A stretch of DNA of 51,170 nt from Candidatus Nomurabacteria bacterium (GCA_020632395.1 JACKFQ010000003.1:1-51170), one strand, 5' to 3'. Numbered from the stretch's first letter, positions 435 through 23,437 are shown. The notes: generated from the sequence alone by a model not told the origin. Numbers and translations: made by a program.

Positions 435-1427
435 ATGTTTGGAAAGAAATTGGGAATAGATCTCGGAACAGCAAATTCAGTAGTATACCTCCAAGGGGAG
501 GGTGTTGTTCTTGTCGAACCTACGGTTGTGGCCCTTGATGTAAATGATATGAGTGTAATTGCAGTAGGAAGCGAAGCTAAAGAAATGATAGGAAAGACAC
601 CTGATGAGATCATTGTTAAACGACCAATGCGTAACGGTGTGATCGCAGATGCTCGTGTGACAGAAGCCTTATTGAAATACTTCTTCTCTAAGTCACTGGG
701 TGGTGTCTCAAGGCTTTTTAAACCCGATGTGATGATCAGTGTACCTGCAGGTATAACAAGCGTTGAGCGTCGTGCTGTTCTAAAGGCAGCTAACGATGCG
801 GGAGCTAGAAAGACAAAATTAATACCAGAGCCATTACTTGCGGCTATTGGTGCTGGATTACCTATTGAAACATCTTCAGGCAATATGATAGTGAATATGG
901 GGGGAGGTACTTCTGAGATTGCCGTTATTTCATTGCGGGGAGTTGTAGAGTATTCATCTCTGAGAGTTGCGGGTGATGCATTAAATGACGCAATAATCGC
1001 TCATCTTCGTAAGAAACACGGTTTGCTGATCGGAGAGCAAACTGCTGAGCAGATCAAGATCAAGATCGGTTCAGCGATCAAGGTTGAAAAACCTAGATCC
1101 TATGAGATCAAGGGGCGTGATGCTGCAGGTGGTATGCCAAGATCTCTGATCATTGATTCAAATGAAATCGCTGAGGCGTTGAGAGTCCCATTAAATCAGA
1201 TCATAGCGGCAATAAAATCTGTCCTAGAGCGTACACCACCGGAGTTGGCAGCAGATATCATAGATAGGGGAATGGTCATGAGTGGAGGAACTGCGTTGCT
1301 TTCGAATCTGGACAAGCTATTTACTAGGGCAACAGGTGTTCCTGCTTATGTTGCTGAAGAACCGATGTTTTGTGTGGCGAAGGGGACTGGTGAGGCGTTG
1401 GAGCTTTCCTTCCCCGCTAACTTATAG
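435..1427 (+). CDS. mreB: MreB/Mbl family actin-like protein, stand-alone paralog
   Basis: GIDLGTANS, RPMRNGVI, VPAGITSVERRAV, AAIGAGLP, GGGTSE, SGGTALL motifs; probable start ATG 435 (ORF opens at 417). Confidence 0.93.
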   Translation: MFGKKLGIDLGTANSVVYLQGEGVVLVEPTVVALDVNDMSVIAVGSEAKEMIGKTPDEIIVKRPMRNGVIADARVTEALLKYFFSKSLGGVSRLFKPDVMISVPAGITSVERRAVLKAANDAGARKTKLIPEPLLAAIGAGLPIETSSGNMIVNMGGGTSEIAVISLRGVVEYSSLRVAGDALNDAIIAHLRKKHGLLIGEQTAEQIKIKIGSAIKVEKPRSYEIKGRDAAGGMPRSLIIDSNEIAEALRVPLNQIIAAIKSVLERTPPELAADIIDRGMVMSGGTALLSNLDKLFTRATGVPAYVAEEPMFCVAKGTGEALELSFPANL

Positions 1428-1429
1428 TG
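1412..1429 (+). repeat. Dispersed 18-bp motif, copy 1 (CCCCGCTAACTTATAGTG), contains the mreB stop codon
   Basis: Matches the six other copies at 6937, 18421, 20285, 22057, 23354, 23420. Confidence 0.85.
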
Positions 1430-1626
1430 CGATAGCGGAGATAGGGTGAATATCGCAGAGTAACATCTATCGGTCATCAATTATCTAATGCAGATCCATA
1501 TAGTTTGAATGAATGTAGAATGGGCATGATGTCAGGATAGCTCCGAAATAGAATAGCTGGGAAAAAAGGAAACGATGGAACCGCATGACAAGAAAGCAAT
1601 TAGCAGGGAGTTAGGAAAAGCTGGAC

Positions 1627-1729
1627 GGCAATAAAGTAGGAAGCTAGAAGCAGGTAAACAGGATGGGTAAAGGCAAGAACCGAAACCGCAGGGCAATAAA
1701 GTAGGAAGCTGGGAGCAGGTAAACAGGAT
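1627..1729. repeat. Purine-rich 38-bp direct repeat, 2 copies, period 65
   Basis: ggcaataaagtaggaagct(a/g)g(a/g)agcaggtaaacaggat at 1627-1664 and 1692-1729. Confidence 0.8.
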
Positions 1730-1860
1730 CGCAACAAAGAAGTAAGCAGGAATATGCCCTCTCAAGACTACGAGTCTTGAATTATATAGAGAATGTCGCG
1801 GGTGGAGCCGATATTCTTTTTCCGATAGACCTTATTGATTATTTCTGCTACCGTCATGTT

Positions 1861-2559
1861 ATGGTTGATCCCTTAGATAAGAATATTTACGCTCCATATC
1901 AGAGGCTGGTGGATTATGCTATAGATGCATTAAAAGATCTGGGAAGAGATCCAGTACTACTCGATGCTGGTTGTGGCCATAGCACAGCCTTAGAGGAGCA
2001 GTATAAGCGATGTGGGAAAGTTATTGGAGTGGATATGGATAGAAAAGCCCTAAATCGCAATGTCCTTATTGATACAAAGGTTTTTGCTGATATGACAAAT
2101 GTTCCTCTTCCTGATGATTCGGTTGATATTATCGTATCTGCCTGGGTATTGGAACATGTAGAAAAACCCGAGATCTTCATCAAGGAGTGTGATAGGTTAC
2201 TTAGATCAGGAGGGTATTTCATTTTCATAGCGCCGAATGTTGATGGGTGGTATGCGGTGTTGGCCAGTGAGATACCATATTTTATTCACGAATTTTTCAC
2301 AAAATTACTCTATAAAAGAGGAGAAGGAGATACATACAAGGCGTACTACAGACTGAACTCGGAAGAAGATATGGATCGTTACCTGGTAGAAGATCATAAA
2401 TATACAAAGATCAAGTATGTATACAATGATGATCCTCGTTATATCGGGTTTACTATATTTACGAGACCGTTGGCTTGGTTGTGGCAAAAGATCGTTATGA
2501 TGAAGCGGATGGAAAAATTCCGTCTGCATGTAATAGGTTTGTACAAAAAGCCTAGTTGA
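1861..2559 (+). CDS. Class I SAM-dependent methyltransferase
   Basis: LLDAGCG motif I, VIGVDMD, VPLPDDSVDIIVSAWVLEHV, LLRSGGYF; probable start ATG 1861 (ORF opens at TTG 1777). Confidence 0.88.
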   Translation: MVDPLDKNIYAPYQRLVDYAIDALKDLGRDPVLLDAGCGHSTALEEQYKRCGKVIGVDMDRKALNRNVLIDTKVFADMTNVPLPDDSVDIIVSAWVLEHVEKPEIFIKECDRLLRSGGYFIFIAPNVDGWYAVLASEIPYFIHEFFTKLLYKRGEGDTYKAYYRLNSEEDMDRYLVEDHKYTKIKYVYNDDPRYIGFTIFTRPLAWLWQKIVMMKRMEKFRLHVIGLYKKPS

Positions 2560-2596
2560 TGATATTATCTTAGCAATAAAATATAGGCCATAGATT

Positions 2597-3751
2597 ATGA
2601 CCATATTCACTAAAAAAGGAAAAAAGAACATGAAGTTGGCGGAGCTTACAGAGATCCTTCACGAACTGCGTATTCCAACTTCACTTGTGTTGACGCCAAC
2701 GAATCTAAATACAGAAATGGAGAAATTCTTGAATTCTGAGGATTACAACCCTCAATTTGAATATCGGATAGTAAATAATAAGAATGACAAGCTCTTTCAG
2801 ATTCTTGCATCTCTCGAGAGTGTTACAGATGTAGACCCAAGATTATCAGAATTCTATATTCAACTAATTGAATCAAAGAAACTGTCTTCTGATCTAATGC
2901 ACGCAGTAGGTGATAATGTACGATTTACAAAATTATCCATAAAACGATTTAGGATGCCTACGCCAGTACTTTTCAGAAATGCTTGTCGTGTACTTAGGAG
3001 GTATGTGTCAATGTATGATCTGTCAGAACCAAAGAAAGATAGGCGAAAAATGGGCTTTGATGAGGTGGCTGCAGTTATAAATACTGTCCTAGAAGAATTT
3101 GAACTCAAGGAGTGGAGTGCTAATAAGTCTATGAACATAGCACAAAATGGAATGAAGGTAGGAGTCAAAAACAAGGAGATCCTGATCGATCCAAACATTG
3201 AGACCACTCCCTCCCGCTTACGCAAATCTATCGTTCACGAATTTACACATGTGATCAGATCACATAATGGTCTGAAGACAGGCTATGAGGCTCTTTCTAA
3301 GCCTACATATGGTGATTATCTGGAGGTCGAGGAAGGACTAGCTGTATATAATGAGGAGATAATGGGGTTATTGAGCTATTCTGACTTAAGAAAAGGTGCC
3401 GTTTCGGCCTGGGGGACATATATCGGTCAAGAGATGTCTTTCAGGGAGCTTCATAATGTATATAGCTCTATCTATACAAAGAAAAATGCATTCCTTCGGG
3501 TTCTTCGTGTAAAGAGAGGTTTAGGCGATACTTCAATGCCGGGGATATACTCAAAAGATGTTGCGTATTTTAGAGGTTTTAGGAGGGTAAGGAAGAAATG
3601 TGCTGAAGATGCAACATTGTATGCAAAATTGTATGCAGGAAAGATCAATTTCAAACAGGTCAGTTGGGTTGATGATGGATTGATCAGAAAACCTGCTATT
3701 GTTCCTAGTAAACAGAGATTTGAGAAGGCCTTTAAGAAAGCCGGTATATAG
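2597..3751 (+). CDS. DUF1704/MATCAP-family zinc peptidase (QEGLA/EEGLA-motif protein)
   Basis: HEFTH..R..NG, EEGLA, RVKRG, YSKDVAYFRG and LYAGKI motifs; alternative start ATG 2630. Confidence 0.85.
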   Translation: MTIFTKKGKKNMKLAELTEILHELRIPTSLVLTPTNLNTEMEKFLNSEDYNPQFEYRIVNNKNDKLFQILASLESVTDVDPRLSEFYIQLIESKKLSSDLMHAVGDNVRFTKLSIKRFRMPTPVLFRNACRVLRRYVSMYDLSEPKKDRRKMGFDEVAAVINTVLEEFELKEWSANKSMNIAQNGMKVGVKNKEILIDPNIETTPSRLRKSIVHEFTHVIRSHNGLKTGYEALSKPTYGDYLEVEEGLAVYNEEIMGLLSYSDLRKGAVSAWGTYIGQEMSFRELHNVYSSIYTKKNAFLRVLRVKRGLGDTSMPGIYSKDVAYFRGFRRVRKKCAEDATLYAKLYAGKINFKQVSWVDDGLIRKPAIVPSKQRFEKAFKKAGI

Positions 3752-3774
3752 ATCAGAAATGTGTGGTATAGCAC

Positions 3775-22650: not shown

Positions 22651-22772
22651 AGGCGTTGTTTCTAATTTGATTGTAACATATTTACTGGGAAATGTACATT
22701 ATAGGATGTGTAAGTAATAGTAGGTCGAACATTCCATATCAAGGGTGTTTGAAACAGTGGTGTAAGTAACCC

Positions 22773-23263
22773 GTTGTACAGGGGATCCGTTGTGCAGAGA
22801 ACCCATTGTACAGGGAACCCGTTGTGCAGGGAACCGTTGTGCAGAGGACCCATTGTACAGGGAACCCGTTGTGCAGGGAACCGTTGTGCAGAGGACCGAT
22901 TGTACAGGGAACCCGTTGTACAGGGGATCCGTTGTGCAGAGAACCCATTGTACAGGGAACCCGTTGTGCAGGGAACCAGTGGTACAGGGAACCAGTGGTA
23001 CAGGGAACCAGTGGTACAGGGAACCAGTGGTACAGGGAACCAGTGGTACAGGGAACCAGTGGTACAGGGAACCAGTGGTGCAGGGAACTCGTTGTACAGG
23101 TAACCCGTGGTGTAGAGAACATTTAGTTATCAGTGGCGCTGAGAACAGGATGTAATCAGTGGTACAGAGAACAGGAAGTAACTAGTGATGCAGGGGATAG
23201 GAAGTAACTAGTGGTGAAAGGGGATAGGAAGTAACCAGTGATGAAGGGGATAGGAAGTAACCA
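22773..23263. repeat. Composite tandem array (about 22 x 15-16 bp plus 5 x 26-27 bp) derived from the tRNA-Tyr 3' end
   Basis: Six perfect GTGGTACAGGGAACCA units at 22979-23074; the tRNA 3' end reads TGGTGCAGGGAACAGGAT on this strand. Confidence 0.93.
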
Positions 23264-23264
23264 G

Positions 23265-23350
23265 TGGTGCAGGGAACAGGATTCGAACCTGTGTAGCCGT
23301 GAGGCGTTGGATTTACAGTCCAATGCGTTTGACCGCTCCGCCATCCCTGC
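23265..23350 (-). tRNA. tRNA-Tyr(GTA)
   Basis: GCAGGGA/TCCCTGC acceptor, TTGGA-CTGTAAA-TCCAA anticodon arm, long variable arm, TTCGAAT T-loop, CCA. Confidence 0.96.
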
Positions 23351-23353
23351 CTA

Positions 23354-23371
23354 TCCAGCTAACCTATAGAG
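23354..23371 (+). repeat. Dispersed 18-bp motif, copy 6 (variant TCCAGCTAACCTATAGAG)
   Basis: 3 bp from the tRNA-Tyr 5' end; inverted relative to copy 7. Confidence 0.75.
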
Positions 23372-23419
23372 GTTAGGGGGTGCTTCCAACTGGTTACATC
23401 ATATCATACTATCCATCCG

Positions 23420-23437
23420 CACTATAAGTTAGCGGGA
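23420..23437 (-). repeat. Dispersed 18-bp motif, copy 7, directly after the tRNA-Thr(TGT) CCA
   Basis: Minus strand ...TCCA-TCCCGCTAACTTATAGTG. Confidence 0.9.

Follow-up and report, generated by a model that had tools for sequence, protein, structure and literature searches.

An 18-nucleotide motif at tRNA gene ends of a Candidatus Nomurabacteria genome and its relatives and in rRNA hairpin inserts of the latter

We characterized an 18-nucleotide motif that recurs at gene ends in a 51,170-nucleotide stretch of DNA from Candidatus Nomurabacteria bacterium (GCA_020632395.1 JACKFQ010000003.1:1-51170; this whole stretch is hereafter the window). The motif, TCCCGCTAACTTATAGTG (hereafter R, with R' for its reverse complement), stands singly and with zero spacing behind tRNA genes, and together R and R' form the arms of hairpins, in the window between two tRNA genes and in related bacteria of the Candidate Phyla Radiation (CPR) within rRNA genes. 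The sequence-only reading of the window, in which the motif was noticed, had offered the end of a mobile element and an RNA-processing signal among its explanations. Both ideas are kept here and combined: the reading we favour, tentatively and accepting that it may well be wrong, is that R is the conserved arm of insert modules of the intervening sequence (IVS) type, specific to WS6/Dojkabacteria-type bacteria, which would be transcribed in sense with stable RNAs and kept constant by a factor that reads R.

Copies of R in the window

A search of the window with the pattern TCCMGCTAACTTATAGTG, allowing up to three mismatches, returned seven copies (1412+, 6937+, 18421-, 20285-, 22057+, 23354+, and 23420-) against 0.04 expected from shuffled sequences. 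The copy at 1412 has one mismatch to this degenerate pattern and that at 23354 has two. These are the seven copies listed by the sequence-only reading, at the same positions and on the strands that it implied. When the search was relaxed to six mismatches, only matches with five or six mismatches were added, at the background level (27 expected); the family in the window is therefore sharply bounded and includes no decayed copies.

Three copies match R at 18/18 positions and directly follow the encoded CCA of a tRNA gene on the minus strand: 18421..18438 behind tRNA-Trp(cca) (18439..18513), 20285..20302 behind tRNA-Thr(ggt) (20303..20378), and 23420..23437 behind tRNA-Thr(tgt) (23438..23514). 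ARAGORN and Rfam agreed on these three genes and on tRNA-Tyr(gta) (23265..23350, minus strand, CCA encoded). For tRNA-Trp and the two tRNA-Thr genes the Rfam model stops 3 nt before the motif, and the zero spacing after CCA described earlier was upheld. An Rfam scan found no family other than tRNA at or beside the window copies.

The copy at 23420 is also the 5' arm of a complete module of the hairpin type (R, 48 nt, R'; 23354..23437, minus strand), which fills the spacer between tRNA-Thr(tgt) and tRNA-Tyr. Its partner arm R' (23354..23371, plus strand) reads CTCTATAGGTTAGCTGGA on the minus strand and ends 3 nt before the 5' end of tRNA-Tyr. The two arms, which had been described as an inverted pair around 48 bp, pair at 16/18 positions when G-U is allowed. 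The same spacer is only 4 nt long in the relative L023, compared with the 84-bp module in the window.

The remaining copies are solos on the plus strand. The copy at 1412..1429, which begins CCCCGC, lies in the sense strand of an mreB paralogue and encodes its last codons (...PANL); the open reading frame (ORF, 417-1427) ends on the TAG of the motif at 1425-1427, so that R supplies the stop codon, as had been proposed. The copy at 6937..6954 is an A form (TCCAGC...) located 6 nt upstream of, and antisense to, the ATG of a CphA-like ATP-grasp gene (5266-6930, minus strand); with the 3 nt at tRNA-Tyr, this accounts for the spacing of 3 to 6 bp reported for copies facing 5' ends in the opposite sense. 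The copy at 22057..22074 (18/18) is preceded by TCCA, confirming the CCA seen there earlier, with no RNA gene detectable at this place. On one side of it are the terminators of a small minus-strand gene and on the other the promoter region of an HD/PDEase gene, and it is antisense to both neighbours.

Two patterns that the window had suggested did not extend to other loci. Fold-back of the flanks on the CCGC(T) part is visible in three to four window copies, but over 74 copies from all loci the mean longest stem was 2.6, compared with 2.5 in shuffled flanks. The division into a C form after 3' ends and an A form before 5' ends was also not borne out, since the A-form copies of L026 and L027 follow tRNA 3' ends in the sense strand.

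Distribution of R among genomes

Exact matches to R were collected from one genome per prokaryote species, and metagenome and viral contigs were scanned likewise; the resulting loci are designated L with a number. R occurred at 32 genome loci, 30 of which are in CPR/Patescibacteria assemblies. The approximately 19 assemblies carrying R are labelled Dojkabacteria (WS6), Saccharibacteria, or Nomurabacteria. Matches in Romboutsia and Aureispira were rejected as being at chance level, since by our estimate 596 Gb should contain a few tens of chance matches. With the hits otherwise confined to CPR assemblies, both a cyanobacterial source of the window and an identity of R as small dispersed repeats were rejected. 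The metagenome contigs yielded 27 further loci, and no R was found in the viral contigs scanned. Between the window, L007, and L023, NusG and the ribosomal proteins share 46-74% identity; the carriers of R therefore form one fairly deep clade, and some taxonomic labels of the records are probably loose. The DNA sequencing runs that contain the window came from activated sludge and wastewater. No RNA run containing the window was found, and the DNA contigs of runs with a low share of it held no empty-site allele from the same organism.

The copy number of R is low, with three exact copies on one contig of 724,554 bp (L012, L016, and L026). Copies inside ORFs (L006, L018_2313, L035, and L039) were at chance level and were set aside. 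An in-frame insertion of the Rickettsia palindromic element (RPE) type was also rejected: the PcrA copy of L018 encodes the conserved residues FPLTYSGF and hence is not inserted.

R at the 3' ends of tRNA, tmRNA, and protein genes

The loci contain 52 distinct genes for tRNA or transfer-messenger RNA (tmRNA), and in 28 of them R was found on the same strand, at -7 to +4 nt relative to the called 3' end. The other 24 had no R there, and R was rare at bystander tRNAs. In the majority of cases R starts immediately after the discriminator of a gene that does not encode CCA (Val, Lys, Ser, Ala, Asp, Ile, Asn, Leu, and others); it starts after an encoded CCA in the three tRNAs of the window, in L043 and L045, and in tmRNAs, the last of which carry R behind them in L052, L056, and L042. 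Both types occur for tRNA-Val(gac), as A|R in L003 and L012 and as ACCA|R in L043. An element targeting CCA, one of the earlier suggestions, is therefore not supported, because in most other genomes no CCA is encoded at the site.

Nine to eleven protein genes likewise end on R in the sense strand. The stop codon is supplied by R either as TAA (offset -9, protein end ...SR) or as TAG (offset -16, ...PANL), and in the other cases is found 0-6 nt ahead of R. The endings ...PANL and ...SR of several genes in these genomes are thereby explained, as R forms their last codons and stop. The orientation is the same in every setting, with the TCCCGC end of R toward the host gene or helix and the GTG end pointing away. 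About half of the solo copies lie between convergent gene ends.

The best partner of R within 400 nt downstream, scored with G-U allowed, followed a bimodal distribution: hairpins gave 15-18 pairs and solos 11-14, the latter being the level of the upstream control. Since their partner scores are at background, the solos are true solos, with no cis partner within 400 nt.

When genes for one tRNA species (Lys-ctt, Val-gac, Val-tac, Ser-gct, and Ala-cgc) are compared between genomes, R mostly matches at 18/18 positions, and the next 50 nt are unrelated; the exceptions are L052, with two mismatches, and L015, with three. The syntenic cluster Thr-Tyr-Thr-Trp-secE-nusG is occupied differently in each relative, namely, Thr-R, R'-Tyr, Thr-R, and Trp-R in the window, R'-Tyr and R'-Thr in L007, and Tyr-R in L023. 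R has thus been both gained and lost between relatives. In the window, the R at tRNA-Thr(ggt) is followed by a sigma-70-like promoter and rpmG (19892-20059), and that at tRNA-Trp by a promoter and secE (17977-18177); L007 has the same orders of promoter/rpmG and promoter/secE without those copies of R. The window solos are bare additions without cargo.

Between rpmG (minus strand; ribosomal protein L33, 55 aa), which follows tRNA-Thr(ggt), and tRNA-Trp, the window also holds a gene for a 292-aa membrane protein with no family match (18642-19520, minus strand), where L007 has 375 nt in all. L023 carries other genes at this place, which indicates that this space between tRNA genes takes up foreign genes independently of R.

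Inverted R pairs in rRNA genes

The window has no rRNA gene, and the following results come from related loci. Rfam placed the R pairs of L010, L030, L050, L054, and L059 within 23S rRNA genes, with the perfect R always as the 5' arm in the sense strand, and it placed inverted pairs within 16S rRNA genes as well. By our reading of the sequence, rather than by structural alignment, the flanks of the pairs match the regions of H25, H45, and H98 of 23S rRNA and h44 of 16S rRNA of Escherichia coli. H25 and H45 are the two classic IVS sites of 23S rRNA, and the hairpin tips that hold R accommodate expansions in every domain of life. Loci fetched through homologues of the GIY-YIG gene described below, and thus not chosen for R, have R pairs in their rRNA operons too. 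Across these operons the pairs occupy the tip of h44 in 16S rRNA, where h6 also holds an R-like copy, and in 23S rRNA they occupy H25 (together with the gene), H45, and H98 as well as sites near nt 215 and nt 1870. Over all hairpin forms, including those outside rRNA, the loops are either 7-48 nt or approximately 300-340 nt long. In the inserts of the IVS type, 17-18 of the 18 positions pair when G-U is allowed.

Seventeen distinct hairpins, read in the sense strand, gave 249 Watson-Crick, 37 G-U, 13 A-C, and 7 other pairs, counts that are partly inherited between orthologous sites and hence not independent. The antisense reading would give 13 G-U and 37 A-C. Paired cells made up 93.5% of the total, compared with 33-45% when the partner was slid. 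U-G was the commonest pair at positions 11 and 17, and changes on both sides were found at three positions. These results indicate that the hairpins are constrained as sense RNA. The loops between the arms in rRNA have diverged completely, and the arms have been kept, above all the 5' arm, which in most hairpins is nearer the consensus than the 3' arm. In the partner arm a G stands opposite U11 in 12/17 hairpins and opposite U17 in 8/17; the consensus of the 3' arm, CRCTATAGGTTAGCGGGA, is not the exact complement of R, and the conserved wobble pairs may be recognition marks.

The insert at H25 has the layout R, approximately 70 nt, an ORF of 88-95 aa, and R'. The ORF, the only one between any arms, encodes a GIY-YIG nuclease domain (PF01541, E 1.4e-12), whose closest solved relatives are the SLX1 structure-specific endonucleases. 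The gene is kept at this site in several species, represented by L010 (7009-7296, minus strand), L054 (3056-3340), and L060-L064, with 63-85% protein identity. No GIY-YIG gene was found in the window by tblastn.

In L066 (2930-3400) a distant small GIY-YIG gene (41% identity) lies between a partial tRNA-Ser-like 5' duplicate and the complete tRNA, as if it had been inserted into or beside a tRNA gene. The 23S rRNA genes with R hairpins also hold a LAGLIDADG ORF (L010, 4816-5475) and a group I intron (L050, 1517-1773), both of which are usual in CPR rRNA genes.

Metatranscriptome contigs on related 23S rRNA genes leave the inserts at H45 and H25 uncovered; these contigs cannot show absence, and other organisms dominate the data. 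Runs marked 'RNA?' that are of metagenomic source cover the inserts.

R' at tRNA 5' ends and direct arrays of R

An inverted copy at the 5' end was found in 4 of the 52 tRNA/tmRNA genes. R' abuts tRNA-Tyr in the window, tRNA-Tyr and tRNA-Thr(ggt) in L007, and tRNA-Glu in L014/L020, where R, 7 nt, and R' make a hairpin of 43 nt. The likeness to a tRNA acceptor 3' strand, which the sequence-only reading pointed out for TCCAGCT, holds for TCCCGCT too and is literal at two genes. In L007, tRNA-Thr(ggt) begins with the final six letters of R', and its acceptor strand carries the same letters; in L024, the acceptor 3' strand of tRNA-Gly(ccc) and its discriminator coincide with the first seven letters of R.

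Direct arrays were found behind a few tRNA genes. In L001 (also L055), three units of approximately 90 nt, each starting with R, lie behind tRNA-Asp at 3930-4020, 6729-6820, and 7691-7780 and bracket unrelated minus-strand genes, including one for a DHH phosphoesterase. A unit stands upstream of each bracketed gene in antisense, and the TATAAG of R could act there as a -10 box. In L004 (2196-3515) and L011 (6347-7433), two direct copies of R bracket one gene behind tRNA-Asn, and this gene differs between the genomes. In both L004 and L011, a degenerate repeat derived from the 3' end of tRNA-Asn (TTTTGAAGTACGCGGAGTTCA) stands before the distal R, and a further copy of this repeat comes after the proximal R.

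Proposed origin of R and alternative explanations

We propose the following for R as the arm of an IVS-type module. In the full form, R, the loop, and R' would be transcribed in the sense strand and fold into an RNA stem of 18 bp; such hairpins would cap the tips of rRNA helices or occupy the spacers before or between tRNAs, as between tRNA-Thr(tgt) and tRNA-Tyr in the window. In the solo form, a bare 18-bp R would have been copied onto an exact gene end, with its TCCCGC end against the gene. R may then be removed from the RNAs, by RNase III at hairpins, as in known IVS, and by ordinary or R-specific 3' trimming at trailers. A conserved factor, either a protein or a complementary RNA, would read R and keep it from drifting; such a reader is suggested by the constancy of R while loops and flanks diverge, since RNase III alone would let the stems covary away. 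Identical 18-mers behind more than 15 tRNA species cannot come from point mutation, which argues for copying at the DNA level, probably aimed at structured boundaries of RNA genes. The SLX1-like GIY-YIG nuclease possibly helps in this copying, and is the only candidate helper for the spread of R.

Several observations weigh against this proposal. We know of no mechanism by which an 18-mer alone could be copied precisely onto the end of a tRNA gene. No target-site duplication was found at the 84-bp element of the window, at L014/L020, or at the rRNA inserts. The GIY-YIG gene is present at one rRNA site only, apart from one distant free-standing relative in L013. Decayed solos are almost absent, although mere passengers should decay, which favours a function for the solos. 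Moreover, as the loci were gathered by exact match to R, the conservation at 'orthologous' tRNAs carries an ascertainment bias.

A rather less probable, though possible, explanation is that R is an RNA signal that benefits the host: a dedicated protein or guide RNA would recognize UCCCGCUAACUUAUAGUG in the sense transcript and define or cut the RNA at the 5' edge of R, thereby making the mature 3' ends of tRNA and tmRNA and excising or marking the rRNA hairpins, with copying of the DNA being secondary. The zero spacing of the sense-strand R from the discriminator or CCA in about 30 tRNA/tmRNA genes is consistent with such a cut, as are the mostly 18/18 matches at the same tRNA species amid unrelated flanks, the same constancy of the rRNA 5' arms around diverged loops, the better preservation of the 5' arm, and the scarcity of decayed solos. 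However, R cannot be required for processing, because 24/52 tRNA/tmRNA genes do without it and relatives lack it at the sites of the window; a cut at its 5' edge would also produce non-stop mRNAs wherever the stop codon belongs to R. Antisense orientation is seen in a few perfect copies against tRNA 5' ends or gene starts (L007, and 6937 and 22057 in the window), and no candidate reader was identified. That R is instead an att-like site of site-specific recombination, which captures cassettes beside tRNA genes so that its copies are insertion junctions, appears improbable to us. The direct R...R arrays behind tRNAs that bracket unrelated genes (L001/L055, L004, and L011), the variable genes beyond R at tRNA-Lys (L028, L025, and L019), and the tRNA genes enclosed by two direct copies (L045, L015, and L058) would fit this explanation. 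By contrast, Pfam scans found no integrase or other recombinase and no transposase in the window or in the cassettes examined; the integrase, TnpA(Y1), or IS110 gene that the earlier reading had proposed to look for beside the copies was likewise absent from the window and from the surroundings of the copies in the loci examined. The genes that follow R at tRNA-Thr(ggt) and tRNA-Trp in the window are the conserved rpmG and secE rather than cargo, the cargo of L023 entered the same tRNA cluster without R, and R pairs inside rRNA helices are hard to reconcile with cassette capture.

We regard a regulatory or structural site at the DNA level, such as a promoter, a terminator, an uptake sequence, or a site for a replication or segregation protein, as very improbable, and the placements of R already largely refute it. 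In its favour, R includes the hexamers TATAGT and, on the opposite strand, TATAAG; the antisense copy at 6937 shortly precedes a start codon; roughly one solo in two sits between convergent gene ends; and the window copies are beside the point near 24-25 kb where gene orientation and GC skew change. Nevertheless, a standard sigma-70 promoter was rejected, as canonical TTGACA-17-TATAAT-like promoters lie elsewhere: TTGACT/TTGATT-TATAAT (23565-23597, belonging to tRNA-Thr(tgt)), TGGACA-17-TATAAT, and TTGCCC-17-TATAAT sites serve the tRNA operon, secE, and rpmG, and no -35 element accompanies R. The termination signal entertained in the sequence-only reading is excluded because R occurs in the sense strand inside rRNA genes and makes up whole 21-nt tRNA-tRNA spacers (L058); there is also no hairpin followed by a U-run at R. 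A role in DNA uptake, also raised there, does not agree with three exact copies on a 724-kb contig, as uptake sequences number hundreds to thousands per genome.

Described mobile elements were also considered. The two inverted ends typical of a miniature inverted-repeat transposable element (MITE) or insertion sequence (IS) are present in the hairpin forms, and most copies outside rRNA are solos. The end of a MITE or IS with an autonomous copy was rejected, there being no transposase in the window or in the cassettes examined and no ORF between arms other than the GIY-YIG domain of 88-95 aa. An end of the IS200/IS605 type, or a repetitive extragenic palindromic (REP) sequence mobilized by a REP-associated tyrosine transposase (RAYT), was rejected because the Pfam scans gave no Y1 transposase hit and fold-back over the 74 copies does not exceed that of shuffled flanks. 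An integron-type cassette site was rejected in view of the missing recombinase in the window, the restriction of arrays to L001/L055, L004, and L011, and the cargo-free window solos.

Comparison with known systems

IVS in 23S rRNA are known from Salmonella, Yersinia, Campylobacter, Leptospira, and Coxiella, and R inserts resemble them in that stem-loops with inverted repeats replace the tips of H25 and H45, some with a small ORF, in a sporadic distribution and with pairing of the RNA type. They differ in that R is one 18-nt arm shared by numerous rRNA sites (the h44 tip in 16S and no fewer than five in 23S) and constant across species, in that it also stands alone at the ends of tRNA, tmRNA, and protein genes, and in that excision by RNase III is for R inserts a supposition. 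CPR bacteria are known for heavily interrupted rRNA genes. To our knowledge, the origin and spread of rRNA intervening sequences have gone unexplained in the decades since their discovery. Short non-intron inserts at known IVS sites, presumed to be RNase III substrates, have been described in CPR 23S rRNA genes, and GIY-YIG ORFs have been reported in non-intron inserts of CPR rRNA genes (PMC11270868). That survey (PMC11270868) names neither a shared arm sequence nor a link to tRNA genes. Our literature search for the letters of the motif returned no relevant paper among those searchable, and in searches by topic that survey was the only relevant one. The presence of one invariant arm both in such inserts and precisely at the termini of tRNA, tmRNA, and protein genes is thus apparently undescribed.

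The REP sequences and their inverted pairs (REPINs) with RAYT, the Correia elements of Neisseria, and the RPEs of Rickettsia are, like R, short sequences that occur singly and as inverted pairs at gene ends, are co-transcribed, and are possible RNase III substrates; RPEs likewise occupy permissive spots of RNA genes. Unlike these, R is not palindromic and occurs in very few copies, with neither a target duplication nor a RAYT or transposase, and it is set precisely against the mature terminus of stable RNAs, always with the same end toward the gene. With the attC sites of integrons R shares its orientation at the 3' end of genes, where it may overlap the stop codon, and some direct arrays behind tRNA; however, it has no integrase nearby, consists mostly of single cargo-free 18-mers, and has hairpin forms inside rRNA genes. 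Organellar 3'-end motifs, including the yeast mitochondrial dodecamer and the sites of pentatricopeptide repeat (PPR) proteins, and tRNA punctuation are comparable in that a short sense-strand sequence directly behind genes marks RNA ends. In contrast to them, R is optional (at a minority of genes), occurs also in rRNA hairpins, and has no known binding factor.

One 18-nt arm ties together rRNA inserts, the trailers of tRNA and tmRNA, and the ends of protein genes, and it adjoins the gene of a structure-specific nuclease. One sequence and one candidate protein thus offer a testable handle on the copying of inserts and the maturation of stable RNA in ultra-small bacteria. If R were a processing signal, it would be a bacterial counterpart of the organellar 3'-end motifs. 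It is conceivable, though unlikely, that WS6/Dojkabacteria-type CPR bacteria possess a dedicated system around this 18-mer, either for RNA processing or as a new mobile element. In the former case, a protein or guide RNA would read UCCCGCUAACUUAUAGUG, cut precursors at their exact 3' ends, and fragment rRNA at up to seven hairpin inserts. In the latter case, an element whose sole gene encodes the SLX1-like GIY-YIG nuclease would write its 18-bp end onto structured DNA where strongly transcribed RNA genes have their boundaries or hairpin tips, and this would be the smallest autonomous element known.

Other features of the window

tRNA-Tyr is the only tRNA of the window without R at its 3' end. 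A tandem array lies directly behind it (22768-23281, minus strand), with approximately 21 units of 16 nt and approximately six units of 26 nt. The units consist of the last 13 nt of tRNA-Tyr (GTTCCCTGCACCA) plus CTG, and the CCA is kept in every unit; a 127-aa ORF at 22739-23122 is probably spurious. Short-period tandem arrays (10, 17, 35, 18/36, and 17 nt) are also present at 13497-13753, 37467-37721, 30606-30757, and 3775-3854, and the genome seems prone to them.

Near the copy at 22057, a hydrophobic ORF of 69 aa with no family match (22165-22374, minus strand) has a GGAGA ribosome-binding site and two successive terminator-like hairpins (22166-22199 and approximately 22095-22143). At approximately 24.0-25.1 kb, gene orientation changes from mostly minus on the left to plus on the right and the GC skew becomes positive; a replication origin could lie in this region, and no dnaA was found among the ORFs scanned.

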